From sequence record PZ452600.1: a stretch of 50,825 bases of DNA, one strand, 5' to 3'. This DNA comes from a phage. Below the pieces are notes generated by a model that saw only the letters and a program-made list of their open reading frames with translations, had not been told where the DNA came from and made no database searches. Both the position numbers and the translations under genes were made by a program. Position 1 is the first letter of the stretch. Each line of letters opens with the position of its first letter. Of the stretch, positions 28,011 through 45,643 are shown in pieces.

Positions 28011-28021
28011 CTAGTCACCTC

Positions 28022-28065
28022 ATAGCATTTTTTGTTAAAACAGTTTATTGTAATGAGTCTATTAT
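28022..28065 (+). promoter_or_regulatory. box cassette (putative phage promoter) upstream of helicase
   Basis: ATAGCATTTTTTGTTAAAAC 28022-28041, N18, TATTAT 28060-28065; in divergent intergenic region. Confidence 0.5.
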
Positions 28066-28097
28066 ATACTCCAAATGGCATTTTTTAAAGGTTTAAG

Positions 28098-30095: not shown

Positions 30096-30514
30096 TGGCT
30101 ATAACTGATAAAGGAGATTATCTTGAGTTTTACGAAAGAGATCCAACCGACACGAGAAAGGAAGTTAATCACCAGATAGATAGCTTTCAGTGGTTGACTT
30201 ATGCTCATCCTTATTTGCTAGCGTGGCATACGGTAAACGAGAATGAGAAGTCGAAAGTAACGGCGATGATTGATCAGCAGTCCGGCTTGGTTAAGGGGGT
30301 AAGCGATTTCATCATCCTGATTGGTTCAAACGGAAAATACCCCTTTGCAGCGATTGAGATCAAACGAGTTAATAAATCAGGCAAGGGGAAAGCATCACCA
30401 GTCAGCGATGAACAAAAGGCTTTTTTGCGTCGCGTTCGCAGCTTAGGAGGATTCGCTGCGGTCGCCTACGGATTTAATCAGTTTAAGTTAGCTATTGAAT
30501 ACATGCTTAAATAG
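30095..30514 (+). CDS. VRR-NUC-like nuclease
   Basis: TAATG overlap with helicase stop; 139 aa with ...FIILIGSNGKYPFAAIEIKR... suggestive of a PD-(D/E)XK/VRR-NUC core. Confidence 0.5.
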   Translation: MAITDKGDYLEFYERDPTDTRKEVNHQIDSFQWLTYAHPYLLAWHTVNENEKSKVTAMIDQQSGLVKGVSDFIILIGSNGKYPFAAIEIKRVNKSGKGKASPVSDEQKAFLRRVRSLGGFAAVAYGFNQFKLAIEYMLK

Positions 30515-30554
30515 CACTTTTTGTTAAAACTGGCGCGATGGATTGCGCCATAAT
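30511..30554 (+). promoter_or_regulatory. box cassette upstream of Dam-like gene
   Basis: box 30511-30530 overlapping upstream stop TAG; hairpin TGGCGC/GCGCCA; CATAAT 30549-30554. Confidence 0.5.
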
Positions 30555-30594
30555 TCAATAACACGAGATGGCTTTTAATAGCGGAGAAATGAAA

Positions 30595-31324: not shown

Positions 31325-31582
31325 ATGAAAAAAGAGAGAAGCGTTTATTTAAATGAAACTGGCGAGTGGTTGTTATTTCGCGCTATGGTGTGCGATGCAC
31401 TTGATAAAAACCCTAACGTGAAAAAGATGATTGATTGCGATCCGTGGGAATTTTCAAGCGCATTAGATATGAGCTTTGATGAGACAAGAAAACTCCCTCT
31501 TGAAAAATGGCACGAACAAATCAGAAATGATATGCAAGAGTTTGTAGATTCGTGGAATTTTCAGAACGGAATGATCCACTAA
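31325..31582 (+). CDS. hypothetical protein
   Basis: GGAG RBS; 85 aa; stop abuts a box cassette. Confidence 0.5.
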   Translation: MKKERSVYLNETGEWLLFRAMVCDALDKNPNVKKMIDCDPWEFSSALDMSFDETRKLPLEKWHEQIRNDMQEFVDSWNFQNGMIH

Positions 31583-31641
31583 TAGCACTTTTTGTTAAAA
31601 CGCCCGGCATTTTGTCGGGCATAATTATTTCATCGAAACGA
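31582..31641 (+). promoter_or_regulatory. box cassette
   Basis: box 31582-31601; hairpin GCCCGGC/GTCGGGC; CATAAT 31620-31625; second box CATCGAAACGA 31631-31641. Confidence 0.5.
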
Positions 31642-31657
31642 ACGTGAGGAAATGAAA

Positions 31658-31837
31658 ATGGTAGTATATAGCAAGAAAGCATTTGACCAGGCGCAACAAG
31701 CCGCACGCGAGGCGGTAAAAGGTGGAACGAAAAACAATATGCAGCTTGATTGGGGCGCTGCAATGATTCTACTTCGCGTTGCATATGGTCACTACCCATT
31801 AGAATTTGCGGAGGCATATTATAAGCATGAAGGTTGA
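31658..31837 (+). CDS. hypothetical protein
   Basis: GAGG 8 nt before ATG 31658; downstream of cassette 31582-31641. Confidence 0.45.
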   Translation: MVVYSKKAFDQAQQAAREAVKGGTKNNMQLDWGAAMILLRVAYGHYPLEFAEAYYKHEG

Positions 31838-32069
31838 ACAAGGTAGAGAGGCGGTATGGAATCACGCTAAAGAATGCGGAATAGCCGACGATATAAAGAA
31901 GATCGCGCAATACTTTGATATTGCAGATGTGAGCATAATTAGCGGCGATAAGATGACTTTCCTCAAGGAAAGGCCGCGAAAAATGGTAAGAGTTCCAGCA
32001 GTTCCAACAAAAATTGATTTCAAAGAGGCAATGGCTAAAATCCGAGAGCCTCGCAAATATTATAAATGA
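31827..32069 (+). CDS. hypothetical protein
   Basis: ATG 31827 overlapping upstream 3' end; 80 aa. Confidence 0.4.
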   Translation: MKVEQGREAVWNHAKECGIADDIKKIAQYFDIADVSIISGDKMTFLKERPRKMVRVPAVPTKIDFKEAMAKIREPRKYYK

Positions 32070-32074
32070 GGATA

Positions 32075-32135
32075 GTTATCATGTGGCGCTTGTTTGTTAT
32101 ACCGTTACCCGTTATCATCGCTGTTACAGTTATGT
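32075..32135. repeat. GTTAY repeat array upstream of HTH-phosphoesterase gene
   Basis: GTTATCA (32075), GTTATAC (32096), GTTACCC (32104), GTTATCA (32111), GTTACAG (32123), GTTATGT (32128) in a 94-nt intergenic region. Confidence 0.45.
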
Positions 32136-32163
32136 ACCATATAGTGATGAGATAGGTAGCAGA

Positions 32164-33279
32164 ATGAAAAATGTAAAAATTACAGATGAGCAATTCAAGA
32201 TCGAACGGGCGGCGGGTAAGACATATAAACAGATCGCTCAAGAGTACGGAATGAATGTGAGAAGCGTCGAGCGTCGCGCGGCGCGACTTGCAAAGCAAGG
32301 CCAGGTATCCACAATTGGAGCGCCTGGTTTTGGCGTTCATGGTGAGTCAGTAATGACTGACAAAGAAGGCAACATAATCCTAAAGTGGACTAAAACCAGC
32401 AAGGATAAAGAGCAATTAGAAGCATTAATGCGCGCAGCAATGGAGGCATTTAGCGAGGAAGTGCCGCGATTAGATCCGGTTCCATTACAGGAGCGCGACT
32501 ATAACGAAACGCTTTCCTTGTATCCGATCTTTGACATGCACTTAGGCGCTATGGCCCATAAGCACGAATGCGGCGAAAATTGGGATACTGCCACGGCAGA
32601 GCGCGTTATGAATAACTTTATCGACTATGCTTTAATGTGCGCACCGGATAGCGAAAAGGCTGTCATCCTGATTGGTGGCGATATGCTGCATAGCGACGGC
32701 CTGGAGGCGGTTACACCTGCAAGCGGTCACGTACTGGATCAAGATAGTCGATATGCAAAATTGGTTTACGTTGCCATCCGTGCAATGCGACGCGCAATCA
32801 ATAAAATGTTGTTAAAGCATAAACATGTTGAAGTCCAGATCGTAGAGGGCAATCATGACCAATCAGGAATGATTTGGCTGCGCGCAGCAATGGCGGCAGC
32901 ATATGAAAACGAGCCGCGCGTTTACGTTGATGTTTCACCTCGCGTTGTGCACCACACGCAATACGGAAAAACTTTCCTTGCGTACCATCACGGGCACACA
33001 GTGCGTAAACCGGAGACTTTGCTAATGATGTGCGCGTCAGATTGGCGGGAGGACTTCGGAAACTCAAAAACGATGTATGCGCACGTAGGGCACTGGCATC
33101 ACCAGACCGTGACAGAAACGTCGCTTGGCATCGTTGAGGTGCATAGCACCCTGGCGGCAAAAGACGCATACGCCGCGCGCGGTGGCTGGAGATCTCGACG
33201 CCGTGCGGCGGTTATCATTTACGACAAAGAGCATGGAGAGGTGGGGCGATTTGTTCACTATCCAGAAATGATGAATTGA
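32164..33279 (+). CDS. HTH domain fused to calcineurin-like metallophosphoesterase
   Basis: N-terminal HTH-like TYKQIAQEYGMNVRSVERRAARLAKQG; phosphoesterase motifs DMHLG, GGDMLHSDG, EGNHD, GHWHH; preceded by GTTAY repeat array. Confidence 0.65.
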   Translation: MKNVKITDEQFKIERAAGKTYKQIAQEYGMNVRSVERRAARLAKQGQVSTIGAPGFGVHGESVMTDKEGNIILKWTKTSKDKEQLEALMRAAMEAFSEEVPRLDPVPLQERDYNETLSLYPIFDMHLGAMAHKHECGENWDTATAERVMNNFIDYALMCAPDSEKAVILIGGDMLHSDGLEAVTPASGHVLDQDSRYAKLVYVAIRAMRRAINKMLLKHKHVEVQIVEGNHDQSGMIWLRAAMAAAYENEPRVYVDVSPRVVHHTQYGKTFLAYHHGHTVRKPETLLMMCASDWREDFGNSKTMYAHVGHWHHQTVTETSLGIVEVHSTLAAKDAYAARGGWRSRRRAAVIIYDKEHGEVGRFVHYPEMMN

Positions 33280-33425
33280 TGAATTTTTATTTAAATCAAT
33301 GACAAATTAAATCAAAAACTTGCAAGGGGGCGGCGTTTGTCGCCTCTTTTTTTTGTTTAATTTTTTTACCATGTACGTTTATCATGCGGTCAATATATTG
33401 ACTTTAATTAATATGGAGAATAAAA

Positions 33426-33641
33426 ATGAAAGATTTTATTAACGCAGCTACCGCCGGATCTGGCGGTTCATCTATCGCAAGCGCCGCTACAGGGCAGTTA
33501 ACCATTGCTATTGCCAGCTTTGTTTTAATGGCTGCATTCGGTGCATGGGGCGCTTACCTTCGCTGGCGTGATAGTAAAAAATTCCACGAGGCGATCGAAA
33601 AAGGTGATATTCAAAAAGCTATTGAAATCAGGGGCAAGTAA
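33426..33641 (+). CDS. holin
   Basis: 71 aa, one hydrophobic helix ([21 protein letters not shown]) and charged C-terminus; immediately upstream of endolysin. Confidence 0.65.
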
Positions 33642-34132
33642 TGAGCATAAAGAACAGGGTAGCGGCGGCGGCCTTTGGCGTTGCGGTTGCCTTGACTTCT
33701 CCACTTCTTGAAGAGATCGAAGGGGTAAGATACAAGCCATACAAAGATATTGCGGGAGTATGGACGGTTTGCGCAGGAATCACCGGACCCGATGTTATCC
33801 TGGGGAAAACGTACACTAAAAAAGAGTGTGATGCTTTGTTGGCTAAGCATATCCAGGTTGCTAAAAAGGAAGTTGACAAGCAAGTTAAGGTTGACATTCC
33901 TGATAGTATGCGTGCAGCAATGTACTCATTCACTTACAATGCAGGTGTGGGAGCTTTCAGAAATTCAACAATGCTGAAACTCATCAACCAGGGGAAATTA
34001 AACGAGGCTTGCGATCAGCTTTATCGTTGGACTTATTACCATAACCCAAAAACAGGAAAGCGCGAGAAGTCTAAAGGCTTACTTAACAGGCGCAAGGTCG
34101 AATACAAATATTGCACAATGGATCTGAAATGA
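33641..34132 (+). CDS. endolysin (lysozyme-like glycoside hydrolase)
   Basis: TAATG overlap with holin; catalytic-triad-like spacing E-x8-D-x5-T in [26 protein letters not shown]. Confidence 0.8.
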
Positions 34133-34524
34133 TGAAGAAATTTTTAATCGCACCAATCGCAATGGCGGTGATCTTGTCTGGATGTTCAAGCGTTACGCCA
34201 CTGACCGGATTAATCGGCAGTAAGCCGGAAATCACAGCACAGGCTGGCGCGGAGAACGTGAAGCAGACAGTTGGCATTACAGCAAAGCAGGACGCCAGCA
34301 CAAAACAGGAAACCACAATAAAGGAATCTGCGGTTGACAAGGTGGACACGTCCATCAAGAAGGATTTCACAACATCAACCATTCAGGCCAATACCATCAA
34401 GGCAGACAAAATTCAGGTCGTGCAGGGTAATAACGGCAGATGGTACGATCCGGTAATCATATGCGTGGTTGTGTTAATTGTGCTGATTTGTCTTTACTGG
34501 AGAGAAAAGAAAAAGGAGGCTTAA
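34129..34524 (+). CDS. unimolecular spanin (u-spanin)
   Basis: N-terminal lipoprotein signal with lipobox (AVILSGCSS) plus C-terminal transmembrane helix ([16 protein letters not shown]); overlaps endolysin stop. Confidence 0.7.
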
Positions 34525-34541
34525 TGCCTCCTTTATTTTTA
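34511..34541. terminator. bidirectional terminator after lysis cassette
   Basis: AGGAGGC-TTAAT-GCCTCCT flanked by A- and T-runs; spanin stop codon lies in the loop. Confidence 0.6.
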
Positions 34542-34763
34542 TGCGTCGGGCCACATATGAGTTTCGTTTGTTGGCTTGTTCGATTCGTCGTACTGCCTTA
34601 CTTCAATGCTGCAAGTGTCGCCATACATTTCTGCAATCTTGCGCTCATTTTCAACCGCCGATTGCTCACTCCATCCAAAACCTCTGTCATAAATTGTCGG
34701 GATTTCAGCAGAAGATCCGTTGTCATGATTATATACGCGAACTACTAAAAACTTGCTGGACAT
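34539..34763 (-). CDS. hypothetical protein
   Basis: 74 aa; preceded by box cassette 34784-34843 and AAAGG RBS. Confidence 0.5.
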   Translation of the reverse strand: MSSKFLVVRVYNHDNGSSAEIPTIYDRGFGWSEQSAVENERKIAEMYGDTCSIEVRQYDESNKPTNETHMWPDA

Positions 34764-34783
34764 AATTTTACCTTTTGGTTGTT

Positions 34784-34843
34784 TCGTTTCGATGAAACAA
34801 ATATACCCGACAATAGGTCGGGCGTTTTAACAAAAAATGCTAT
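34784..34843 (-). promoter_or_regulatory. box cassette
   Basis: minus-strand ATAGCATTTTTTGTTAAAAC, hairpin GCCCGAC/GTCGGGT, TATATT, CATCGAAACGA (34794-34784); ATG 34763. Confidence 0.5.
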
Positions 34844-35034
34844 TCCATGCGCTTTACCGTAACCAGTAATACACCATCATCATTGCATAAAACATGTTCA
34901 GTGGTGCTAAAAGCGCGCATATCTGAATAAAGTAGCGTAAGTAAAGCATGAATAAAATCCTCATGTGATATTGAATTTACGGCGCAGTGCTTCAAGATCT
35001 TGTCTATTAGCTTTTGCCTGGAACAATTCATCAT
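34840..35034 (-). CDS. hypothetical small protein (uncertain)
   Basis: Ends with TAG embedded in box 34824-34843 like other cassette-flanked genes, but overlaps 34961-35356 by 74 nt; start unclear. Confidence 0.25.
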   Translation of the reverse strand: MMNCSRQKLIDKILKHCAVNSISHEDFIHALLTLLYSDMRAFSTTEHVLCNDDGVLLVTVKRME

Positions 35035-35356
35035 CGCCCATCTCCCCTATTCTAGCCATATCCCTGATCCAGTCGTTGCGCATACCATCCAGGCTATACA
35101 ATTCGAATCCGAAAGGCCGCTTTGACGATCCTTTGGACCAGTATTTTCCGCAGACCCCATCTATATAACCAGCCGTCATCATTCTTGCGCAAAATTCCTT
35201 AGATGCAAGGCTGGCGAACATTCGCGGCGTAAGTCCGGCGGCCCGTGCGAGCCGCTCACATTCTCTATGCTGATAGATAAATTTGGCTATGTGCTGCCTG
35301 TTAAACCAGTCGTATGACTCACACCATTTATACAGATCAAGCAAAAACATAATCAT
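34961..35356 (-). CDS. hypothetical protein
   Basis: 131 aa; ATGA overlap with upstream stop. Confidence 0.5.
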   Translation of the reverse strand: MIMFLLDLYKWCESYDWFNRQHIAKFIYQHRECERLARAAGLTPRMFASLASKEFCARMMTAGYIDGVCGKYWSKGSSKRPFGFELYSLDGMRNDWIRDMARIGEMGDDELFQAKANRQDLEALRRKFNIT

Positions 35357-36933
35357 CCCAGCAGTATTGGATTGACAAAAATAACACCATTAATCACACA
35401 AACATAATTTCTTTCTTCCAGCATTGGCAGCAAGTGCCCTTCTATCCTCTTCATTACGCCAGCCTGACCAACGAAAGGTTTTACCTTTCTCGCTGATTCG
35501 TACAGGGCGCGAATATTCAGGATCCCTTTGTTAGCCTTGCCGTGCCTCGTGATCAATTCAATCAATTTACCCATTTCAGCATCATCACCAGCATAACCAG
35601 AAGCATTGGCGGCGCTAATGTATGTTTTGCTCAACTCCTGAAACATGATCAGAGCCTCTTGCATTGTATCTACGTCGATCTCTTTCGACTTCTGCGGGTA
35701 TCCAGCAGGATTAAACCAGTTGCGTATAACATGCAGGACGGAAGCAAGCCTGATCACCTGTTTATCCATTTTACCCAGCGCACCGCGTAACATTGTATGA
35801 GAATACTTTCCTCCGTCTGCAAGATGCGGTTCCATATCCTGGCGAGCAATGTTGAGCACTCGCATAGCTGAACGGCTTATTTTCAGCGATATATTTGATT
35901 CGCTCATGATGTTATGCACCAATTGATAATATTGGGCTTTCAATTCAGAATCCACCGCCTCATAGGTAGAATCACCATTTTCATCAATGAATGAGCGACG
36001 GCCTAAGAATGATTCCTCGCGGACCAACAAAAAACGCTCACTAACACCGATGCCTCGCGATCCAGCGTCCATTATTCCGCTTATCGTTTCATCCTGGGCT
36101 ATAACGCTCATACATCCAAGCGCGCGAAAACTCATATTATTGTCAGCATTAGCGCGGGCAATTGATACGTGACCATTATCCCACGCCTTAAGCACTAACT
36201 CACTGTTAGTCTTCCTTTCGCTATTTGCATAGGTCAAGCCTAACAGACTGTTAATACTTGTTGCTTCATCAGATATTACGGCAAAGTTACCTTGCTTGTT
36301 GTTGATTTTCGCCAAGCCTTCTGGAGTTGTATCTGAAACAGGAAAAGTTATATCACACATTTTTTCCAGCTTTTCCTCCAGATCCTCTTTTTCCTGGTAT
36401 AGAGATTCCATATCAGCGCCGGATCTTTCGCTTTTCATCTCCTTTGCAAGACCTGCCAGCTTTGCCTGTATTTTCTTTCTTTCCTTGCGGCGTTGCTCGT
36501 TGATCTTCTCAACTTCCGCAATCATCGGAGCAATAGCCATGCTGTTGATCGCAGATTTACCAGTTGACGGCGGCTGGCTTGTAACGACGTAAAGCGCAGT
36601 CGGCTGATCGGTTCCGTGATAGTCAACCGTAAAGCGTCCAAGCATAGCGGCAGAAATGCAGCCGATAAAGTGCATGTAAGCCGATGATTCAGGGAATTGA
36701 ACGGATCGCGCAATGCTGCGTGATAACTTGCCGACAACATCAATATCATTACCAAGAGAAATAACGGGGTAGCGATCGTGACCGCTATTCACATCCTTTA
36801 CGTCGCCCCAAAAGCTGGACGACTGGCGATAGCCGTTAGCCTGAATTGATACGCGAACTGGTGAGAGGTTCTGGCTTTCAGCCATAGCGATTATTTGCTG
36901 TGGAGTTAATTTGTTCGTTTCTAATGAAAACAT
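35353..36933 (-). CDS. P-loop-containing protein (DUF3987/primase-associated-like)
   Basis: 526 aa; AAGGAG RBS; P-loop-like PPSTGKS; central charged coiled segment. Confidence 0.5.
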   Translation of the reverse strand: MFSLETNKLTPQQIIAMAESQNLSPVRVSIQANGYRQSSSFWGDVKDVNSGHDRYPVISLGNDIDVVGKLSRSIARSVQFPESSAYMHFIGCISAAMLGRFTVDYHGTDQPTALYVVTSQPPSTGKSAINSMAIAPMIAEVEKINEQRRKERKKIQAKLAGLAKEMKSERSGADMESLYQEKEDLEEKLEKMCDITFPVSDTTPEGLAKINNKQGNFAVISDEATSINSLLGLTYANSERKTNSELVLKAWDNGHVSIARANADNNMSFRALGCMSVIAQDETISGIMDAGSRGIGVSERFLLVREESFLGRRSFIDENGDSTYEAVDSELKAQYYQLVHNIMSESNISLKISRSAMRVLNIARQDMEPHLADGGKYSHTMLRGALGKMDKQVIRLASVLHVIRNWFNPAGYPQKSKEIDVDTMQEALIMFQELSKTYISAANASGYAGDDAEMGKLIELITRHGKANKGILNIRALYESARKVKPFVGQAGVMKRIEGHLLPMLEERNYVCVINGVIFVNPILLG

Positions 36934-36961
36934 TCGTTAGCTTCTCCTTTGTGGGCCGTAA

Positions 36962-37005
36962 ATTTTAACGGCCCAATACTACCCCGTTTTGTCAAAAAGT
37001 GCTAT
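36962..37005 (-). promoter_or_regulatory. box cassette (variant box)
   Basis: minus-strand ATAGCACTTTTTGACAAAAC, N18, TAAAAT inside hairpin GGGCCGT/ACGGCCC; ATG 36933. Confidence 0.45.
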
Positions 37006-37223
37006 TTGATCCGCTCTATTGCAACCAGAAGTCGATCAGGCTGGCGGTCGCTGTAGCACTCTCCTGTAATCCCATCCTTAAACGTAAAGTAAAGCGCCTT
37101 ATGATATGAAAAACCAATCAGCCAACCTACCGCCGTTTTTTTGATGGGCCTGACTATATCGCCAGGCTTGAAAGTCTTTGTGGTAGAATGCGTTACTTTG
37201 TAACGGTTTTCACTGTTTATCAC
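37002..37223 (-). CDS. hypothetical protein
   Basis: 73 aa; overlaps upstream stop; stop codon embedded in box 36986-37005. Confidence 0.45.
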   Translation of the reverse strand: MINSENRYKVTHSTTKTFKPGDIVRPIKKTAVGWLIGFSYHKALYFTFKDGITGECYSDRQPDRLLVAIERIK

Positions 37224-37606
37224 AGATATTTACCCTCAAAAAGATAACAGCCGCCAGCAGAGAATCCGACCTCTTCACGGTACAGGTTCCAGCGGTCGCC
37301 GCACTCATCAAAAACATAACCAGCAATGCTTCCAAGCGGTCGCCCTTTCTCGATCTGGTATCTCTTTCCCTGCTTAAAGTGCTTTTTGCACGGCATGTTA
37401 TGATCTACAAAAGTGCAAAGAACGGTCTTTGTGTTAATGGCGCGGTAATCATCTCGGTTTGCTGGAAGCCAACGGCTACCCTTAACAAGCGTCTTAACCT
37501 GGAACTCTTCCAACTCGATCACATCATTACTTCCTGAAATCTTCTGATAAACCGTTTTAAATCGGCCTTTCATCAATACGTTGGTTTCATTACAGATAAC
37601 ATTCAT
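37220..37606 (-). CDS. hypothetical protein
   Basis: 128 aa; AAAGGAG RBS; downstream of cassette 37626-37679. Confidence 0.5.
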   Translation of the reverse strand: MNVICNETNVLMKGRFKTVYQKISGSNDVIELEEFQVKTLVKGSRWLPANRDDYRAINTKTVLCTFVDHNMPCKKHFKQGKRYQIEKGRPLGSIAGYVFDECGDRWNLYREEVGFSAGGCYLFEGKYL

Positions 37607-37625
37607 GATCAGATCTCCTTTGTTT

Positions 37626-37679
37626 GTTCGATGTGATTATGCCAGGTTTTTACACCTGGCTTTTAACAAAAAGTGCTAT
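37626..37679 (-). promoter_or_regulatory. box cassette
   Basis: minus-strand box (37679-37660), hairpin GCCAGGTG/CACCTGGC, CATAAT (37641-37636), CATCGAAC (37633-37626); ATG 37606. Confidence 0.5.
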
Positions 37680-38386
37680 TTTGAGTTTGACTCAAATACG
37701 GCGCGAGCAAATCCGCGCGGAGTGAGGGAGCGGATCATCTTTGTGCGCGATGACTTGCCGCCAGTTTTGGCCCAGCCTGGATTATCTTTGTCTTTCTCTT
37801 TCGGCAGGATTAAAGCGCGTGGAGGAATAACAAAGCCGTTGCCAGTCCATAGGCATGTTTTCTTAAAATAGCGATCACGCGCCGGAATAATATCAGGGAA
37901 GTCGGGATGTTTATCATCTTCCGGAAGATAGCCAGCGTAATCGCACGGATGGAACGTATAATCAGGTTTTCGCCATAACGTTGACAACTTGCCAACCGGA
38001 TTTTCGATCATGTAAGGAACACCGAAATAATCAGCTATATCAGCCGCTATCCTGCAAGTGTCGGCGGCCTCATCCTGGAAAGATGGGTTCTCAAGGCGTT
38101 TTTTGGCCCAATGGCGAGATCCGCTATTTGCAAGGTCGGTGCACGGCGGAAATGCCATAATAAAATCAGGATTGCCCCACTCATTATTGATTGCCTTAAC
38201 ATAAAAAGCATCATCAATCCAGACGTTAACGTATTCGATATTCTCATGCTGTATGCGCACTGACTGGTAATCACCGTGATCGCCACCGTCAGCATTAAAG
38301 CAAATGCACTTATAGCCATTGTCAGCCCAATCTTTAACTGCTTTACCAGATCCATCAAATAGGGAGAATATTAAACCTTTATACAT
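37676..38386 (-). CDS. DNA (cytosine-5)-methyltransferase-like protein (short)
   Basis: Motif I-like FSLFDGSG, motif IV-like FPPCTDLANSG, motif VI-like MIENPVG; ATG 38386 with GAGG RBS; only ~237 aa. Confidence 0.6.
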   Translation of the reverse strand: MYKGLIFSLFDGSGKAVKDWADNGYKCICFNADGGDHGDYQSVRIQHENIEYVNVWIDDAFYVKAINNEWGNPDFIMAFPPCTDLANSGSRHWAKKRLENPSFQDEAADTCRIAADIADYFGVPYMIENPVGKLSTLWRKPDYTFHPCDYAGYLPEDDKHPDFPDIIPARDRYFKKTCLWTGNGFVIPPRALILPKEKDKDNPGWAKTGGKSSRTKMIRSLTPRGFARAVFESNSK

Positions 38387-38396
38387 CGTAATTACC

Positions 38397-38621
38397 TCAA
38401 AACGGAAAACAGCGCGCACAACCAGGATCGAAATCGCATCCACAATCATTAACAATAATAGTGGGATCTGCAAATATTGCGCTTGATTCAAGATCCATAT
38501 CCATATCACCTAAAGCCTCATCAAGAGTCTTAATTTTATATGCCACTTCAAGCGCCGCCTCTTTATTTAGTCCGGCATCTTCTGCCATTTGAAGGCGTTC
38601 AAAAAATCCATCTTGACTCAT
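38397..38621 (-). CDS. hypothetical Cys-rich small protein
   Basis: 74 aa; C-terminal CGCDFDPGCARC. Confidence 0.45.
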   Translation of the reverse strand: MSQDGFFERLQMAEDAGLNKEAALEVAYKIKTLDEALGDMDMDLESSAIFADPTIIVNDCGCDFDPGCARCFPF

Positions 38622-38734
38622 CGCATAATCCCCTTAATAACAGCCAAGATAATAGCTAAGCCAGCAGCAGTAACCAAAAATCCAACCGCTCCAATAATAG
38701 AATAAAAAAAGAAATCAATAGCTTTATCTATCAT
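38618..38734 (-). CDS. small hydrophobic membrane protein (38 aa)
   Basis: Not in ORF track; GAGGTGG RBS + ATG 38734; MIDKAIDFFFYSIIGAVGFLVTAAGLAIILAVIKGIMR; ATGA overlap with next gene. Confidence 0.4.
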   Translation of the reverse strand: MIDKAIDFFFYSIIGAVGFLVTAAGLAIILAVIKGIMR

Positions 38735-38776
38735 TTTCCACCTCATTTAAAAGGCGGCAAAACGCCGCCATATTAA

Positions 38777-39004
38777 TTAAAGAGCACGCCAACTTTGAAT
38801 ATAGAAAGCGTTTTCTTCCAGTAATTCTTTTAACTGATCTTTATTGTATTTTCGCACCTTGCCGCCTGGATGGATACCAATAAGATAGCCGCCTTTGCCC
38901 TCGGTGATAGTGATTTGGCTAATTCCGCAAGACTTATCAAGTTTTACAGCAACGCGGTGATGAGCGTCAATAGTTGCCATAATGTTTAAAACTTTTGCTT
39001 TCAT
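38777..39004 (-). CDS. hypothetical protein
   Basis: 75 aa; GAGG RBS; followed by terminator-like hairpin GGCGGCGTTTTGCCGCC. Confidence 0.5.
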   Translation of the reverse strand: MKAKVLNIMATIDAHHRVAVKLDKSCGISQITITEGKGGYLIGIHPGGKVRKYNKDQLKELLEENAFYIQSWRAL

Positions 39005-39112
39005 TTAAATATCCTCAATTGAAATATGAATGGCGTCGTGCTCTTTTTCCGTCGCCGCCGTAATGGTCATTTGCAACAGCCACCATCCGGGCATTTTTGA
39101 AAATAAATAGCC

Positions 39113-39325
39113 TCATTTCTTATTTTTCATCTTAAATTTATGGCCTGGAACACCAGCACCAATATATCCATCGTTGTATTCCATTAAATAAAGGTGAAGG
39201 CCATTATCTGAAATTACATGAGGATCTTCTTTGAGATTTCCCATTAGCGGGTATTCTTTTCCGCGCGTAAATCTCCAAGTTGAGTTATAAGTTTCTACGC
39301 ATTTAAGTTTTAATTGCTTTGCCAT
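39113..39325 (-). CDS. hypothetical protein
   Basis: 70 aa; overlaps upstream stop. Confidence 0.45.
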   Translation of the reverse strand: MAKQLKLKCVETYNSTWRFTRGKEYPLMGNLKEDPHVISDNGLHLYLMEYNDGYIGAGVPGHKFKMKNKK

Positions 39326-39522
39326 TAGATGATCTCCATGTATGTTTCAAAGCCATTTAACTTGAACAGGCCGTTTTCACATTTGCGAACGTTCCAAGTT
39401 AGCCCTGAGTGGTACGCCTCCATATCATCAAGGTCAATGGTGATTTCAGCACCTTTCTTAAACAAACCTTTTTCGTGAGACTTGTCGCGCTTAACAACTT
39501 TAACATCAACCTGATTTTCCAT
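39325..39522 (-). CDS. hypothetical protein
   Basis: ATG 39522 (MENQVDVK) downstream of cassette 39531-39597; track start 39573 lies inside the cassette. Confidence 0.45.
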   Translation of the reverse strand: MENQVDVKVVKRDKSHEKGLFKKGAEITIDLDDMEAYHSGLTWNVRKCENGLFKLNGFETYMEII

Positions 39523-39530
39523 CTTTAAAT

Positions 39531-39597
39531 CCTCGTTTGTTGTCGATGGGTGTAATATACCATTCAGGCGCACATCGCTTTTAACAAAAAGTGCTAT
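39531..39597 (-). promoter_or_regulatory. box cassette
   Basis: minus-strand box (39597-39578), TATATT (39559-39554), CATCGACAACAAACGAGG (39548-39531); ATG 39522. Confidence 0.5.
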
Positions 39598-39883
39598 TAA
39601 ACAACTTTTCCAGTTAAAGAGATAAGTTGCCTTGTGATCTTGTGGCGGCGATACTTACGCGCAACAACAGGAAGGCTTTCACCGCTTTGATGACCAAAGC
39701 AGATCGGCAATTCACCTTCAAGGGAGCGGAAGCCACCAAATTCAAGATCCCGCACTGGCTTAGCGCGCCAGGCTTCAATAAATCCGCGCTCGTCACGAGT
39801 GATATAGCGGTATATATTCGGGAGGGGCAATTGTATCCCCTCAAAATCCACGGTATCGGTATAGCTATAAAACTTAGAACTCA
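39597..39883 (-). CDS. hypothetical protein
   Basis: ATG 39883 with GGAG 10 nt upstream; stop TAA abuts box 39578-39597. Confidence 0.45.
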
Positions 39884-39885
39884 TA

Positions 39886-40026
39886 GTCAACAACTCCAAA
39901 CTCATTGACGATTTGCGCCTTATAGAAGCCGCCATTTTTCGCCATGTTGTAACAAGCGGCTACGGTTTCAAATTCGCGCGCTTCCGGCTGGCTGTTTTCG
40001 TGTTCCCAGGTAATCAGAGTAACCAT
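39886..40026 (-). CDS. hypothetical small protein (46 aa)
   Basis: Not in ORF track; GAGG RBS + ATG 40026 directly downstream of cassette 40035-40103; MVTLITWEHENSQPEAREFETVAACYNMAKNGGFYKAQIVNEVWSC. Confidence 0.4.
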
Positions 40027-40034
40027 TTTCAAAT

Positions 40035-40103
40035 CCTCGCATTCGTTGTCGATGCGTGTAATGTACAGGAATACGAGGATTGAGTTTTAACAAAAAGTGC
40101 TAT
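40035..40103 (-). promoter_or_regulatory. box cassette
   Basis: minus-strand box (40103-40084), TACATT (40065-40060), CATCGACAACGAATGCGAGG (40054-40035); ATG 40026. Confidence 0.5.
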
Positions 40104-40367
40104 TTAGTCCAGGAATTCGATTTCACGCTCTCCAGTTAACGGATCTACAAGCCAGAATCCGAGCGGTTCGCCGTGAACACCGCCATAGAATCCAAGCGCC
40201 GTCAGATCTTCACCTTTAACAAATACCAGGTTTCCGCTACGGCTTACGTGAGACACGTTAACGATAACCGGAAATGTGCGATCCTTAAATGCGGGCCGCA
40301 GGGCGTAACATCCGTTATTGAGCAAACGTGCTTTGCGCTTAACTGGAATAGGTGCATTAATTTTCAT
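40104..40367 (-). CDS. hypothetical protein
   Basis: 87 aa; AAGGAG RBS; stop codon abuts box 40084-40103. Confidence 0.5.
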   Translation of the reverse strand: MKINAPIPVKRKARLLNNGCYALRPAFKDRTFPVIVNVSHVSRSGNLVFVKGEDLTALGFYGGVHGEPLGFWLVDPLTGEREIEFLD

Positions 40368-40379
40368 GGTTATTACTCC

Positions 40380-40592
40380 TTATCGTAAAGATTTAAAGAC
40401 GTATAGTTTATTGCGGTAACTATATATCCGCATTGTTATTTCTCGCAGCGCAATATATTCCTTCCTGTTTTCCGGCATACTGGCGAGCAATAACAGGCAG
40501 TATTTATAAGCGCGGTCAAGATTTCTTTCCGTGCCCCTGCAATATCCATTATTGCGCCTGGATCGGTACAGCCATAACAATTTCTTGAACAT
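40380..40592 (-). CDS. hypothetical basic small protein (uncertain)
   Basis: C-terminal 70 codons of track ORF 40380-40778 from ATG 40592; weak RBS; Arg-rich. Confidence 0.3.
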   Translation of the reverse strand: MFKKLLWLYRSRRNNGYCRGTERNLDRAYKYCLLLLASMPENRKEYIALREITMRIYSYRNKLYVFKSLR

Positions 40593-40593
40593 T

Positions 40594-40803
40594 TCAGATC
40601 CGCCCATACAGATCGCAAACTTCGTTGATAAAACAGCGTTGAGACTCTTTATCCTGCTTCTCAAACATCGCACGGCACTCATAGCGGTGATTATGCACGA
40701 TGACAACAACCATATTTTCAGGCGCTGACGGGTGACGCGCGGAAGCGTCGCAGATTGAAACATCCATACCCATCTCATGTGCTTTCTTGATCACATCCAA
40801 CAT
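40594..40803 (-). CDS. hypothetical protein
   Basis: ATG 40803 with AGGAG RBS (track start 40827 is TTG); 69 aa. Confidence 0.4.
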   Translation of the reverse strand: MLDVIKKAHEMGMDVSICDASARHPSAPENMVVVIVHNHRYECRAMFEKQDKESQRCFINEVCDLYGRI

Positions 40804-41057
40804 TTTTTCTTCTCCTGCAATAAGCAAACATCATTGATAAAATCAGCACGGCCCTTAATGTTGCTGATGTGGAACGTCTTTTCAGCGTACAGGCCATCAC
40901 CTTCAATCACGATCATTACGCGAGTCGGTTTATTCACGGGCGCACGAGAAAAGGGTTGGCGCACCGGAAGAAATTTAGTCATCACATCTAGGTTAGACCT
41001 GGCGGCCCTGCAAAATGCATCCGCCAGATCCAAATCATTTTCGGTAATCACCGCCAT
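40791..41057 (-). CDS. hypothetical protein
   Basis: 88 aa; overlaps upstream stop. Confidence 0.45.
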   Translation of the reverse strand: MAVITENDLDLADAFCRAARSNLDVMTKFLPVRQPFSRAPVNKPTRVMIVIEGDGLYAEKTFHISNIKGRADFINDVCLLQEKKKCWM

Positions 41058-41329
41058 TACTTCTTGATCTCCTTACTGATAAATTTCAGCACCTGGCGCA
41101 AGAAAACTTCGTTGTTGATAGTCGCTGGCAATTCTTCTTTCACTTCTTGCGGCAGATAGATATTACCGTGCCAGGTCAAGCAATCGTAGTTAATACGATA
41201 AGAGCAAAGCCACTCGCAATCGTTATCTGCTTCCCATATGCAGAGTTGCAGAACATCGCCAAAATCTTCAACAGTCAGATCCAGACCGTGACGCTTAGCG
41301 AAATTGAAAGTGGTTTTGCTGATGTTCAT
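41057..41329 (-). CDS. hypothetical protein (first gene of leftward early block)
   Basis: 90 aa; CAGGAG RBS; directly downstream of cassette 41347-41408. Confidence 0.5.
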   Translation of the reverse strand: MNISKTTFNFAKRHGLDLTVEDFGDVLQLCIWEADNDCEWLCSYRINYDCLTWHGNIYLPQEVKEELPATINNEVFLRQVLKFISKEIKK

Positions 41330-41346
41330 TTACTATCTCCTGAGCG

Positions 41347-41408
41347 GTTCGTTTCGATGTGTGTAATGTACCCGATCAGGCGGCCTGAGTTTTAACAAAA
41401 AGTGCTAT
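41347..41408 (-). promoter_or_regulatory. box cassette heading the leftward early block
   Basis: minus-strand box (41408-41389), hairpin CAGGCCGCCTGATCGGG, TACATT (41370-41365), CATCGAAACGAAC (41359-41347); ATG 41329. Confidence 0.5.
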
Positions 41409-41437
41409 TTGACGGTTAGCACCAGGATTGTGATCGA

Positions 41438-41530
41438 AATAATCAAAAGTAATCATTCGTAATCAAATCGCGTCAAAATGATGATTGCCTTTGCAAATTT
41501 GATGAGAAAAGTAATCACGTTTAATCATTG
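41438..41530. repeat. iteron-like array of five (G)TAATCA repeats
   Basis: aaTAATCAaaa, gTAATCAttc, gTAATCAaat (10-11 bp phasing), then gTAATCAcgt, tTAATCAttg 40 nt later; non-coding. Confidence 0.5.
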
Positions 41531-41963
41531 GTTGCAGGGGAGATAGTGAAACCTTCCCCTCTTGCCTCACTTTTCCTCCTGGCTGTCAGTGGTTGTTGTC
41601 TTTTGTTCACCACTGTTACCGATTTCAGGCGGCGTGTTTCCGCGCGGTTTTCCGGTGTAGCGAAAACGGAAAAAACAAAGAAAATCCTCTATAATACATT
41701 GAAAATAAAGATTATTTATTTATATATATCTATAATGTTTTCTTTTTGTTCTCACTGTTACAGTGCTTTTTGTTGGTTATGGTGTGGTTGTGTGTGGGTA
41801 TATATGGATAGTTTCGCGCGCGGCGGATTGCATATGTATATATACTTTTTCCGGCGGATTGCGTTAACAGCGTGAACAGAAAAATAACAGCCGCGAAATC
41901 AATAACTTGCGCGTGATTTTGTAGTTTTTCGATATTGGTAACGTTTTGAATACAACAAAAACA

Positions 41964-41991
41964 TTGACACGCACCAAATAGCTTTTATAAT
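41964..41991 (+). promoter_or_regulatory. near-consensus sigma70 promoter for rightward early block
   Basis: TTGACA-N16-TATAAT; GGAGG RBS and ATG 42023 follow. Confidence 0.7.
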
Positions 41992-42022
41992 GCGCCAACA
42001 GTCAACAACCGGAGGAAAGGAA

Positions 42023-42487
42023 ATGGAACAGAAAACCACTAAGGACTATTGCGATTGGCTTCGCGAGCTTGGTCGCCGCCTGGCTAGTGGAGATATTGAA
42101 GAGTATAAAATGTCACTAATTGACCTGGCCGGAATGTTAAGCGGTGACGACTGCTACAAGATCACGCGCAGTTCATCCTACAGCCGGACCATTATCAACC
42201 GCATTCCAGAAGTAAGGGCCGCAGGTCGGGTAAGCATCAAGGTAGAGGAAGCGGAAGATGATAAATTTTACGTTTTCCGCATGGTCCGCGAATCGAAAAG
42301 GAAAATCATCACACCCGAAGAATTGCCAGCCATCAAGGCAAGGGCGATCAAAAAGTTTGCCGATCGCTTGCTGGCAGCAATCCCGAATATCGTTGACCTG
42401 GAAGGGGATAAACTGGCTGGAGCTTGTGAGGGCGTAAGCCGCTACCAGGATATGATCCGCGAAATCATCAAAGAGGAAGAGCAATGA
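42023..42487 (+). CDS. hypothetical protein (first gene after near-consensus promoter)
   Basis: GGAGGAAAGG RBS before ATG 42023; the track start 41990 falls inside the -10 hexamer. Confidence 0.55.
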   Translation: MEQKTTKDYCDWLRELGRRLASGDIEEYKMSLIDLAGMLSGDDCYKITRSSSYSRTIINRIPEVRAAGRVSIKVEEAEDDKFYVFRMVRESKRKIITPEELPAIKARAIKKFADRLLAAIPNIVDLEGDKLAGACEGVSRYQDMIREIIKEEEQ

Positions 42488-42756
42488 AAAAGGCATTAAT
42501 CAGCGTTTTGGCGGCAATGGCATTCCTGACCGGATGCAAAGAAGATGGCGCGCATGTTGGCAATGTGCAGATGGCTAACCCTGGCGATGACTACAGCGTA
42601 AGGGAGCTATTCACCGCTGACGGTTGCACCGTTTACCGATTCTATGACGATCGCACTGTTTACTTCACCAACTGCAAGGGAACGACTAGCTGGGAAGTGT
42701 CGAAAAGCAACGGCAAAGGCACAACAACAGAATATATGACCGTCGAGACAAAATAG
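42484..42756 (+). CDS. early lipoprotein
   Basis: ATGA overlap; signal peptide with lipobox LTGC (MKKALISVLAAMAFLTGCKED). Confidence 0.6.
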   Translation: MKKALISVLAAMAFLTGCKEDGAHVGNVQMANPGDDYSVRELFTADGCTVYRFYDDRTVYFTNCKGTTSWEVSKSNGKGTTTEYMTVETK

Positions 42757-42812
42757 CACTTTTTGTTAAAACGCCAGGTGCAAAGCCTGGCATAATAGCC
42801 TCATCGAAACGA
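42753..42812 (+). promoter_or_regulatory. box cassette
   Basis: box 42753-42772 contains upstream stop TAG; hairpin GCCAGG/CCTGGC; CATAAT 42791-42796; CATCGAAACGA 42802-42812. Confidence 0.5.
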
Positions 42813-42828
42813 GATTGAGGAAACAAAA

Positions 42829-43014
42829 ATGGCACGTCGCATCACCAAAGACCTTAAAGTCCTGAACAAAGAAAACGTAGTTAAAATCCTGGTTATATGG
42901 GGCTACAACGAAGAAGCAGCAAAGCAGAAGGTAGAGGCAGGTTATGACCTGGCTGTAAAAGCAATGCCAAACGACGACGCCAAAGGCATTGCAAACTATG
43001 TAGCGTTCTTTTAA
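42829..43014 (+). CDS. hypothetical protein
   Basis: GAGG 8 nt before ATG; downstream of cassette 42753-42812. Confidence 0.5.
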   Translation: MARRITKDLKVLNKENVVKILVIWGYNEEAAKQKVEAGYDLAVKAMPNDDAKGIANYVAFF

Positions 43015-43029
43015 TTAGCAGGTGAATAA

Positions 43030-43215
43030 ATGAAAACGAAATTAGTCCATAAATCAGAAATCAAGATCGGCGATACTGTGATTCACAACGGCGAGCTTAG
43101 AACGGTTGGCAAAGAGTCAATAAGCCGCGATGAATTTATGGGGATCTTGTTGTTCGGTGACTCTTATCGTCTTGGTTACAAGATGGTTGAGCTTGTGGAA
43201 GAGGTCAAATTCTAA
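43030..43215 (+). CDS. hypothetical protein
   Basis: AGGTGA RBS; 61 aa. Confidence 0.5.
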   Translation: MKTKLVHKSEIKIGDTVIHNGELRTVGKESISRDEFMGILLFGDSYRLGYKMVELVEEVKF

Positions 43216-43259
43216 ATAGCACTTTTTGTTAAAACTCGAAAACGATAACCAGGCATAAT
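43216..43259 (+). promoter_or_regulatory. box cassette
   Basis: box 43216-43235; N18; CATAAT 43254-43259; stem-loop GGGCGGCACGGCGTCGCCC in leader. Confidence 0.5.
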
Positions 43260-43313
43260 AAATCACATAGGGCGGCACGGCGTCGCCCACAAAACCAATC
43301 AGGAGAAAGCACC

Positions 43314-44117
43314 ATGTTAAAACTTGCTGACATTAAATTCCCGATCACCTTCGAATCTCGCGGCATTGGTCATTACATTTTTACTGATGAAAAAACATGC
43401 CATAAAGTTGATTTGCATAGCTACAAGCGTGCGCCATCAGACATGGAGATTGAACACTTCATTGATGCACATAACAAGCACTACAACGCACTTAAAGACT
43501 ATGGCTATGCAATGCCAGGATATACCAGCTTCCACTACAAGCCATATAAAGGCCAGGTGTTGCCAGTGCGCTCGCCGGAACGCGCAGAGATTCCGATGGT
43601 CAATATGAAAACATGCGACTACAAAAAGCTGTGGTGCTTAAGTGTGGACAATATCAAGTATCCGATCACGTTCCGCACGACTGGTAAGTCAACGATTCGC
43701 TACACATCGCGCGAAAATGGCGTTTATAGCGATGGTACGAAATCAGAGTTGAAAGTTGATTTCTTTGTCAACGGTCACAACAAATTCAATCCGCACAACG
43801 AAGAGGATAAAGTGTACTACGTGGAAGACATTACAAAACACTTGTTTGGAGAAACTCCATTCGGCGGCGGTAAGACGTCAATTCAAAAAATCGTAACGCA
43901 GGGCGCGATTGAAGATATGCCAGTTGCAGCCACGCTAAAAGGAGTCCGGCTTGATGACGGCACCTGGTATGAATTAACGGCTACACCAAAGACGATCGAA
44001 ATTCATGATGATGTTGTTATCCTTCTGCTTCACTACGGCGGCTATAAAAACCGGACGATTACAGGTGAGATCAGCATCAAGCGCGGAACGATGGTTAAGT
44101 GGAAGGTCAAAGTGTAA
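43314..44117 (+). CDS. hypothetical protein with internal duplication
   Basis: 267 aa; repeated segment ADIKFPITFESRGIGHYIFTDE / DNIKYPITFRTTGKSTIRYTSRE; downstream of cassette 43216-43259. Confidence 0.55.
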   Translation: MLKLADIKFPITFESRGIGHYIFTDEKTCHKVDLHSYKRAPSDMEIEHFIDAHNKHYNALKDYGYAMPGYTSFHYKPYKGQVLPVRSPERAEIPMVNMKTCDYKKLWCLSVDNIKYPITFRTTGKSTIRYTSRENGVYSDGTKSELKVDFFVNGHNKFNPHNEEDKVYYVEDITKHLFGETPFGGGKTSIQKIVTQGAIEDMPVAATLKGVRLDDGTWYELTATPKTIEIHDDVVILLLHYGGYKNRTITGEISIKRGTMVKWKVKV

Positions 44118-44160
44118 ATAGCACGAATTGTTAAAACTCAAATGTGGGGCCAGGTATAAT
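44118..44160 (+). promoter_or_regulatory. box cassette (variant box)
   Basis: ATAGCACGAATTGTTAAAAC 44118-44137; hairpin GTGGGGCC/GGCCCCAC with TATAAT 44155-44160 in loop. Confidence 0.5.
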
Positions 44161-44190
44161 GGCCCCACTTTCAACGAAGGAGATAAAACG

Positions 44191-45413: not shown

Positions 45414-45571
45414 CTTGGTTGCTTTTAATCTTTGTCACAAGTTACAACTCCGCAGCTATTGAGTCGCAGGAGTTCCACGGCGAATCAAGATGCCAGGAAG
45501 CGCGAAAGCAAGTTGTTCTCCACATGTCAGATAGTGGGAAGGATGTAACAGCGTTATGCGTTCGTAAATAG
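45410..45571 (+). CDS. small secreted/membrane protein (53 aa)
   Basis: Not in ORF track; ATGA overlap with HAD stop; hydrophobic N-terminus MTWLLLIFVTSYNSAAIES; stop TAG embedded in box 45568-45588. Confidence 0.4.
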   Translation: MTWLLLIFVTSYNSAAIESQEFHGESRCQEARKQVVLHMSDSGKDVTALCVRK

Positions 45572-45612
45572 CACTTTTTGCAAAAAACAGATTAACGGGC
45601 TTGCGGTATAGT
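45568..45612 (+). promoter_or_regulatory. box cassette (variant box)
   Basis: ATAGCACTTTTTGCAAAAAAC 45568-45588; hairpin GGGCTT/AAGCCC with TATAGT 45607-45612 in loop. Confidence 0.45.
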
Positions 45613-45643
45613 AAGCCCATCAACAACAAGCGAGGATTAAATC

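Follow-up and report, generated by a model that had tools for sequence, protein, structure and literature searches.

T1-like phages (Drexlerviridae) are abundant, are kept in phage therapy collections and are notorious laboratory contaminants, and their transcription programme is essentially unmapped. The closest described element is a 21-nt direct repeat of phage TLS that also occurs in T1, Rtp and Rogue1, where it was tabulated as 21-mers only; its function was left as an open question, with a stoperator, an enhancer or an UP element suggested, and only three sigma-70-like promoters were found in TLS (PMC11447400). The repeat, aaATAGCACnnnTTGnTAAAA, is intergenic, oriented with transcription and located about 76 nt upstream of start codons (PMC11447400). 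The same sequence, called box1 here, heads compact cassettes in the 50,825-bp phage sequence PZ452600.1 (the window, meaning the whole stretch that was analysed), and several of these cassettes carry a second conserved sequence, box2, which in its strict form is CATCGA[A/C]AACGA. Unlike the present analysis, the published description reports no fixed extended -10, no CA start and no box2. When the literature was searched for the exact sequence of box1, the TLS paper (PMC11447400) alone was found. From the arrangement of these sequences, we consider that box2 is probably the start point (C at -1, A at +1, T at +2) together with the first ten transcribed bases of a family-specific group of host sigma-70 promoters.

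The window begins with the terminase large-subunit gene, and the studied region is 96-98% identical to the Warwickvirus-type T1-like coliphages Tuinin, tonijn, SECphi27 and swan01. These features mark it as the complete or nearly complete genome of a Warwickvirus-like T1-like coliphage (Drexlerviridae). Cassettes were gathered by box1 alone from the window, from T1, TLS and Rtp-type phages and from metagenomic relatives (IMG/VR contigs), which gave 250 non-identical cassettes; heuristic clustering on their variable parts grouped these into 167 independent lineages. The IMG/VR scans are samples rather than censuses, and counts taken from them are counts among the matches listed. Positions are numbered from the predicted +1, the A of CATCGA, and box2 spans -1 to +10.

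Each cassette is built in the same order: box1 (-51 to -32), 18 variable nt that usually hold a GC hairpin, an extended -10 (tGnTAnnnT), 5 nt, and then C(-1) A(+1) TCGAAACGA, followed by a Shine-Dalgarno sequence (SD) and, in the window cassettes, an ATG 22-34 nt past the predicted start. Box1, with the 20-nt consensus AATAGCACTTTTTGTTAAAA, occurs 19 times in the window at up to 3 mismatches against 0.03 expected, and a looser consensus scan adds the copy at 46878(+). Most copies are asymmetric, intergenic and co-oriented with the downstream gene. The box, AATAGCACnnnTTGnTAAAA, is centred at -41.5, and the TAA/TAG stop of the upstream gene overlaps its first bases. All box2 copies in the window sit inside these rigidly spaced cassettes.

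Exact CATCGAAACGA is present four times in the window against 0.03 expected, a count reached in 0 of 100 shuffles, and exact CATCGACAACGA is present once. An earlier note on this sequence had listed seven copies, placed 5-8 nt past a -10-like hexamer and 15-25 nt upstream of the SD. Five of the seven are exact at the positions it gave (four of CATCGAAACGA and one of CATCGACAACGA), and the other two, 39548(-), which reads CATCGACAACAAACGA, and 37633(-), which reads CATCGAACAAAC, are only indel variants. The spacing to the hexamer holds in a sharper form for six cassettes, in which box2 begins exactly 5 nt past it, and fails for 37633(-), which begins only 2 nt past it, 3 nt nearer than the other copies and out of register. 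The distance to the SD was borne out, with the SD beginning 14-21 nt past the predicted +1 in the window's box2 cassettes. With up to 2 mismatches allowed, the whole window holds 15 matches against 17.4 expected, which is no excess, and the signal is therefore confined to exact or near-exact cassette copies. The only one-mismatch copy outside the cassettes, at 47446(+), lies at the start of a coding region, and weaker versions occur in other cassettes at 45618(+) (CATCAACAACAA), 46928(+) (CATCAACAAGTA) and 20694(-) (CAACGACAAC).

Across the 167 lineages the extended -10 has the consensus tGnTATAaT (T -15 in 42%, G -14 in 81%, T -12 in 65%, A -11 in 88%, T -10 in 74%, A -9 in 66%, A -8 in 57% and T -7 in 86%). 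The start has C at -1 in 71% and A at +1 in 79%, the consensus continues T-C-G-A-A-A-C-G-A-A-A, and T makes up just 5-13% of bases from +3 to +18. Positions -6 to -2, the discriminator, are variable (0.06-0.33 bits), as in TATTT, AGCCT and ACACC. TAnnnT stands at the fixed offset in 154 of the 250 cassettes and at any other offset in no more than 15. Strict box2 was found 38 times among the 250 cassettes, every copy 50 nt from the start of box1, and of the 41 strict copies in the 1.14 Mb searched 38 are in a cassette at that offset. Within this strict class the box1 offset is constant, whereas the first base of the SD varies between +14 and +21 and that of the ATG between +26 and +33. The exact 11-mer is present in 16 of the 167 lineages, compared with 0.21 expected from the position frequencies (P = 5e-25), and 57 lineages (about 34%) come within two mismatches of it. 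By this excess box2 is a discrete motif, and the within-lineage substitution given below suggests some selection on it.

The geometry also bears on what the earlier note had offered as explanations, namely a leader RNA element (translation control, RNase site or antitermination) or an extended promoter discriminator. The discriminator reading was rejected on position: box2 starts at -1, not between -10 and +1, and it is the -6 to -2 segment that varies. A tie to the ribosome-binding site did not hold either, given that the offset to box1 and the -10 is invariant while the SD wanders from +14 to +21. As for a structured leader, RNAalifold placed 0 pairs in the seven window leaders, and leaders from +1 to +45 fold weakly (mean -2.8 kcal/mol; -1.5 kcal/mol and z = +0.84 for strict box2; z range +0.35 to +0.84), more weakly than their shuffles and than random 45-mers of the same genome (-6.7 kcal/mol). 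Leader structure and SD pairing were ruled out on these grounds. The core TCG-AAA-CGA might form an RNA mini-hairpin (UCG-AAA-CGA), but its variants break the pairing on one side only, with no compensatory changes or covariation, and this candidate was dropped as well. No Rfam family matched in the window or at the lambdoid loci described below, which removes a known RNA family, and a structured cis-regulatory leader (attenuator, riboswitch, thermometer or antiterminator) was set aside since no conserved structure with covariation was found. What survives of the earlier proposal is its placement: the box begins at the predicted -1, downstream of the likely start point, at a fixed offset from box1 and the -10. 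It is also conserved outside this genome, in T1, TLS, Rtp, metagenomic relatives and unrelated phages. On current evidence, neither of the observations named there as speaking against the idea, a box upstream of mapped starts or a box unique to this genome, has appeared. The fixed box1 and -10 offset, the variable SD distance and the unstructured, U-poor leaders together lead us to interpret box2 as a predicted start site with its initial transcribed sequence.

The promoter core (-33 to +2) is strongly hairpinned: it folds at -10.4 kcal/mol on average (z = -2.8), and values of -6 kcal/mol or lower are found in 79% of cassettes compared with 27% of random 35-mers. Most arms map to about -31 to -15 and -10 to +5, which places the hairpin in the spacer or across the -10. 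The promoter's own transcript lacks the 5' arm, and the hairpin would thus be relevant only in DNA or in read-through RNA from upstream. Several cassette hairpins are labelled terminators in the T1 annotation, and a consensus scanner flags two in the window.

Extended -10 promoters need no contact at -35. Like extended -10 (TGn) sigma-70 promoters, the cassettes have tG-n-TAnnnT, with TG, and above all G -14, one base before TAnnnT, and they have no usable -35 at 16-18 bp. The TTGnTA within box1 lies 22 bp from the -10 hexamer and is therefore too distant for a -35. The cassettes differ from the extended -10 definition in adding a 20-bp sequence-specific upstream box at a fixed distance. A generic -35/-10 scan of the window returned 33 promoters against 36.5 in shuffles and missed the cassettes, as it would if they are promoters without a -35; this would account for the shortage of promoters in the literature. 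CAT is a preferred pyrimidine(-1)/purine(+1) start context, and the dominant C -1 (71%) and A +1 (79%) fall at the position expected for the predicted start, about 7 nt past the hexamer.

Other phage promoters resemble the cassettes in part. T4 middle promoters also pair a -10 with a conserved upstream box that replaces the -35; the MotA box (TGCTTtA) is centred near -30, whereas box1 is a different sequence centred at -41.5. T5 N25-type early promoters have a conserved purine-rich sequence past +1 that affects promoter clearance, and by analogy this downstream region would have the function that we propose for box2, with a different sequence. The T7 A1 and A3 promoters are likewise early promoters that host RNA polymerase reads, and their initial transcripts are U-poor. 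The T7 RefSeq record annotates promoter positions at which A1 reads C[A]TCGAGAGGG and A3 reads C[A]TGAAACGACAG, and box2, C-A-TCGAAACGA, combines both. The record labels positions 498 and 750 (A1 and A3) only as promoters, and we take them to be mapped RNA 5' ends. Unlike the cassettes, A1 and A3 have a canonical -35, 7 rather than 6 bases from the -10 to +1 and long leaders, and they lack box1 and an embedded hairpin. Like the stoperators of mycobacteriophage L5, box1 is an asymmetric intergenic repeat that runs along transcription. A stoperator would block elongation through a bound repressor and need no promoter; the fixed spacing of box1 to an extended -10 and a CA start points to promoter function.

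Two of the three strict box2 copies outside T1-type cassettes are in Klebsiella phage KP15, a T4-like Slopekvirus that surfaced through the box1 scan. In KP15 (GU295964, 8400-11700), three consecutive promoters at about 10391, 10047 and 9772 have CATCGAAAC 5 nt past the -10: one with exact box1, one with a 1-nt deletion in box1 plus a terminator hairpin, and one without box1 but with TTGCAT-N17-TATAGT. The depositors annotated promoters and terminators at the same sites, with the label 'putative middle promoter; discovered using MEME', and thus gave a middle-promoter label to sites with box1 and/or box2. Horizontal transfer of gene plus cassette was rejected, as the cassette-driven KP15 proteins have no homologues in the T1-like sequences compared. 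The KP15 cassettes precede small genes, and regulatory cassettes appear to be common to unrelated phage families that share hosts.

Viral contigs were scanned for TAnnnT-N5-CATCGAAACGA alone, which gave at least 104 distinct matches. Among the 104 listed, a -35-like hexamer at 16-18 bp is present in 56, an SD and ATG in 26 and both in 18, compared with 4, 0 and 0 of 83 matches to a composition-matched scrambled box (Fisher P = 5e-8 for SD plus ATG and 2e-5 for both). Nearly all of these loci lack T1-like proteins. One match is in the rIIA/topoisomerase region of a T4-like Cronobacter phage (LPCS28/S13 group). About 27 of the 45 listed matches with a 17-bp spacer are lambdoid phages, in which a conserved transcript of the cI/cro (immunity) region, apparently non-coding, begins with the box. 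At these roughly 27 loci the start CATCGAAACGAAACATCGACAGCTGAGCGAAGTTAGCCAGCGGCG follows operator-like promoters with no SD or ATG nearby, and the transcript may represent an early RNA not yet characterised or an element of the nut or put type. In lambda PL, too, CATC follows the -10 after 5 nt. Box2 is not a general feature of the T4-type stem-loop cassettes considered below, given that RB49 promoters of that type in the first 30 kb lack it. One start sequence thus recurs at predicted host-polymerase promoters of unrelated coliphages.

The cassette is probably a compact promoter inserted between genes, with the stop of the upstream gene in box1. In this scenario box1 would substitute for the -35, and the extended -10 (tGnTAnnnT) would give core recognition. 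RNA would start at the A of CATCGA, 7 nt past the hexamer, and the transcript would have a short (about 25-32 nt), A/C-rich, U-poor and unstructured leader that runs straight into the SD. The sequence may have been retained because it aids the choice of start site and escape from a promoter that is bound tightly, and leaves the ribosome-binding site open. By analogy with early promoters studied in phages T5 and T7, the purine/A-rich, U-poor bases that follow the start would plausibly make the early RNA:DNA hybrid more stable and escape easier.

Several points weigh against this interpretation. The +1 in Drexlerviridae cassettes is itself predicted from geometry and analogy, and a search for 5'-end, RNA-seq or time-resolved expression data on the T1 family (Drexlerviridae) found none in the paper library covered. 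Only about a third of cassette lineages have the box, and box2 is therefore dispensable for cassette function. Within-lineage substitution speaks for the interpretation, at 0.063 in box2 compared with 0.10 in the discriminator, 0.15 in the spacer, 0.12 in the rest of the leader, 0.086 in the -10 region and 0.04 in box1, but this estimate comes from only 5 box2-bearing lineages with three or more members. Candidates for the reader of box1 include the alpha or sigma subunits of the polymerase, a host factor and a Cro/YdaS-like helix-turn-helix (HTH) protein encoded at 27534-28010. Finally, among 130 perfect-consensus promoters from arbitrary phage contigs, T is at +2 in 56% and an A-rich, T-poor start is generic, while exact CGAAACGA occurs 0 times. 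General sigma-70 initiation preferences thus do not explain the specific sequence, and box2 cannot be a universal property of strong promoters. Since CAT and A-richness are generic and CGAAACGA is not, the box as a whole is confined to particular groups of enterobacterial phages.

The main rival is a function of the RNA 5' end, in which box2 would act after transcription as a translational enhancer, as a shield against 5'-end-dependent decay (RppH/RNase E) or as a site for an RNA-binding factor of host or phage. Provided that +1 is predicted correctly, the box forms the very 5' terminus of the mRNA. The unstructured, strongly U-depleted leaders fit such a role, as does the excess of the exact 11-mer over compositional expectation. 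No other reading easily accounts for the recurrence of one exact 11- to 14-mer at early-transcript starts in unrelated phages, which general initiation preferences do not explain. However, the box is fixed relative to the -10 and not to the SD or AUG, the 1.14 Mb searched holds no promoter-free box, and neither structure, covariation nor an Rfam family was found. In lambdoid phages, moreover, the box heads a transcript with no SD or ATG nearby, contrary to a purely translational role. We regard a 5'-terminal RNA signal as rather unlikely. With similar reserve, CATCGAAACGA(AAC) might be an 'early-transcript start code', common to T1-like, some T4-like and lambdoid phages and partly to T7 A1 and A3, that is read by a host component. 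If true, it would be read by RNA polymerase during initial transcription or by a factor on the nascent RNA 5' end, and it could confer fast escape, protection from 5'-end-dependent decay or privileged translation beyond that of generic A-rich leaders.

The cassettes also invite comparison with the promoter-early stem-loop (PeSL) cassettes, which have been described in T4-like myoviruses only (PMC2839356, PMC4122927). In a PeSL the upstream stop codon falls in AT-rich sequence, the stem-loop is located between the -35 and -10 or over the -10, and an SD and ATG form the 3' end; PeSLs cluster among small ORFans and undergo inter-cassette crossovers (PMC2839356, PMC4122927). T1-family cassettes likewise contain the upstream stop, place the stem-loop in the spacer or over the -10, end with an SD and ATG before small accessory genes and are associated with indel or replacement breakpoints. 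Whereas PeSLs have a sigma-70 -35 hexamer at about 17 bp, box1 lies 5 bp further upstream and is combined with an extended -10. The T1-family cassettes thus resemble PeSLs apart from the -35.

Comparison of the window with SECphi27, G3B1, tunus and FritzSarasin gave 29 distinct breakpoints in homology. Box1 holds 5 of them, where a fraction of 1.7% was expected (P = 1.3e-4), and cassettes hold 6 (P = 0.003), whereas none of the 29 is inside box2; short IMG/VR fragments gave only 3 breakpoints and were uninformative. Breakpoints at box1 edges lie at 39596/40085, 42751, 44116 and 45565 in the window, and the module between the box1 copies of 40104(-) and 39598(-) has been replaced whole, together with the spacer, -10, box2 and genes that belong to it. 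In PeSLs, crossovers are reported between the -10 and the ATG, unlike those on box1. The placement of breakpoints suggests that box1 mediates PeSL-like swaps of gene modules in T1-like phages. Box2 as a recombination site was rejected, as the breakpoints are on box1 instead, and its conservation is therefore no by-product of a crossover-site role.

These data also bear on whether box2 has a function of its own at all, or is simply carried and homogenised by mobile PeSL-like recombination cassettes. The shared anatomy (PMC2839356, PMC4122927), the enrichment of breakpoints at cassettes and the several identical copies within one genome are what hitchhiking would produce. We nevertheless find it improbable, as the crossovers map to box1 and none to box2. 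Box2 also changes less than its flanks within lineages, and it is kept across lineages with unrelated spacers, -10 hexamers and discriminators and in unrelated phages behind different promoters.

The rigid 50-nt distance to box1 and the inverted repeat in the core TCG-AAA-CGA raise one more explanation, that box2 is a DNA operator for a phage regulator such as the HTH protein mentioned above, acting as a roadblock past the start or as one half of a bipartite site with box1. The HTH regulator is a family core gene with box1 in its own upstream region. However, box2 occurs without box1 in T4-like and lambdoid phages, whereas the 830 matches to the regulator are Drexlerviridae-type genomes (all listed records are 45-54 kb). 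The box is also present in only about 34% of cassettes, and variants break the inverted repeat on one side only. We therefore consider an operator very improbable. The distribution of the regulator has no discriminating power as a link to box1, given that it is a family-wide core gene. Its gene (27534-28010(-)) diverges from a helicase gene, and the 88-bp gap between them holds box1 at 28021-28040(+), a layout that would allow autoregulation if the protein binds box1.

The probable promoter cassette, with its predicted start at box2, is placed by the T1-like phage before many small early genes. The genes behind the seven box2 cassettes of the window encode proteins of 50-128 aa, all of 'unknown function' in PHROG, with Pfam matches that include DUF7170, DUF7421 and 'antiviral trigger Gp54'. 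They are arranged on two arms that diverge from a non-coding region at 41410-41990. The coordinates are collected in the table.

Table. Box2 copies, cassettes and cassette-driven genes in the window (+1 positions are predicted).
Feature	Position	Strand	Details
Box2 CATCGAAACGA, -1 to +10	31631-31641	+	exact match
Box2 CATCGAAACGA	42802-42812	+	exact match
Box2 CATCGAAACGA	34784-34794	-	exact match
Box2 CATCGAAACGA	41349-41359	-	exact match
Box2 variant CATCGACAACGA	40043-40054	-	exact match to variant
Box2 indel variant CATCGACAACAAACGA	39533-39548	-	recognisable, not the consensus
Degenerate box2 CATCGAACAAAC	37622-37633	-	out of register, 2 nt past -10 instead of 5
Cassette 1	31581-31657	+	box1 31581-31600; GC hairpin 31602-31620; -10 CATAAT 31620-31625; +1 predicted at 31632
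Gene behind cassette 1	31658-31837	+	59 aa
Cassette	42752-42828	+	box1 42752-42771; extended -10 TGGCATAAT 42788-42796; +1 predicted at 42803
Gene behind cassette 42752	42829-43014	+	61 aa, DUF7421
Cassette	34764-34844	-	box1 34825-34844 (1 mismatch); hairpin 34805-34823; -10 TATATT; +1 predicted at 34793
Gene behind cassette 34844(-)	34539-34763	-	74 aa
Cassette	41330-41409	-	box1 41390-41409; -10 TACATT; +1 predicted at 41358
Gene behind cassette 41409(-)	41057-41329	-	90 aa
Cassette	40027-40104	-	box1 40085-40104; -10 TACATT; +1 predicted at 40053
Gene behind cassette 40104(-)	39874-40026	-	50 aa, DUF7170
Cassette	39523-39598	-	box1 39579-39598; extended -10 TGGTATATT; +1 predicted at 39547
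Gene behind cassette 39598(-)	39325-39522	-	65 aa, Pfam Gp54 'antiviral trigger'
Cassette	37607-37680	-	box1 37661-37680; extended -10 TGGCATAAT 37636-37644
Gene behind cassette 37680(-)	37220-37606	-	128 aa
Cassette with weak box CATCAACAACAA from 45618	45567-45643	+	drives gene 45644-45907
Cassette, GAA-type box1, weak box CATCAACAAGTA from 46928	46878-46952	+	
Cassette with weak box CAACGACAAC	20676-20744	-	drives lipoprotein-like gene 20400-20675
Cassette, alternative leader class CCCTTATTGAAGCGAAAC	48172-48248	+	long hairpin straddling -10
Cassette without box2	30510-30594	+	upstream of Dam methyltransferase gene
Cassette without box2	43215-43313	+	hairpin downstream of start instead
Cassette without box2, GAA-type box1	44117-44190	+	hairpin straddles TATAAT
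Cassette without box2	36934-37006	-	upstream of DNA helicase gene 35353-36933
Cassette without box2	28021-28097	+	upstream of helicase 28098-30095; divergent from HTH regulator gene 27534-28010

The protein encoded at 39325-39522(-) matches Pfam PF25180, 'phage antiviral trigger protein Gp54' (E = 1.7e-38), a family named for triggering bacterial defence systems. A second discrete leader class, CCTTATTGAAGCgAAAC, is found in the window at 48172-48248(+), in T1 at 3534(+) and 47118(-) and in TLS at 5135(+) and 6477(+). It has a 10-14 bp hairpin over the -10 whose stems vary among copies with complementarity kept, and it is conserved across genera.

Some box1 copies have the opposite orientation: 6194-6213(-), 9947-9966(-) and 26459-26478(+) in the window, with counterparts at 15087(-), 18851(-) and 34901(+) in T1 and at 15043(-) in TLS. 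They directly precede the SDs of late genes with high expression (major capsid, tail assembly chaperone, tail fibre), at positions conserved between genera. The copy at 9966(-) has a proper -10 and faces a bidirectional terminator about 45 nt away, and it could yield a short antisense RNA; no good -10 is present at the other copies.

The non-coding stretch between the divergent accessory-gene arms (41410-41990, 580 bp) has five GTAATCA repeats (41440-41530) and very AT-rich parts. At 41964-41991(+) it holds TTGACA-16-TATAAT, a promoter that matches the consensus perfectly, with an A/C-rich leader after it. The stretch may be a control region or an origin. About 20 'Campylobacter phage' records (e.g., A134, host C. 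jejuni) are closely related to this coliphage, with 86% identity in the terminase large subunit; such labels are odd for these relatives and may reflect mislabelling or contamination.

From the perspective of phage gene regulation, the model makes the 21-nt repeat the upstream half of a -35-less extended -10 promoter that would start at the A of CATCGA. It implies about 20 promoters per genome, each overlapping a hairpin that would insulate it from the upstream gene, and it gives predicted start sites for the annotation of hundreds of genomes. The cassettes also suggest compact, portable promoter-plus-leader parts for E. coli. An exact start sequence at unrelated phage promoters hints at a selective constraint on initial transcribed sequences, a constraint of which we found no description in the literature examined, and PeSL-style modular shuffling of genes would extend beyond T4-like phages. 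If the start code is real, box1 and the start code together would define a new class of -35-less promoter in the T1 family and would answer the question of what the 21-nt repeat does.

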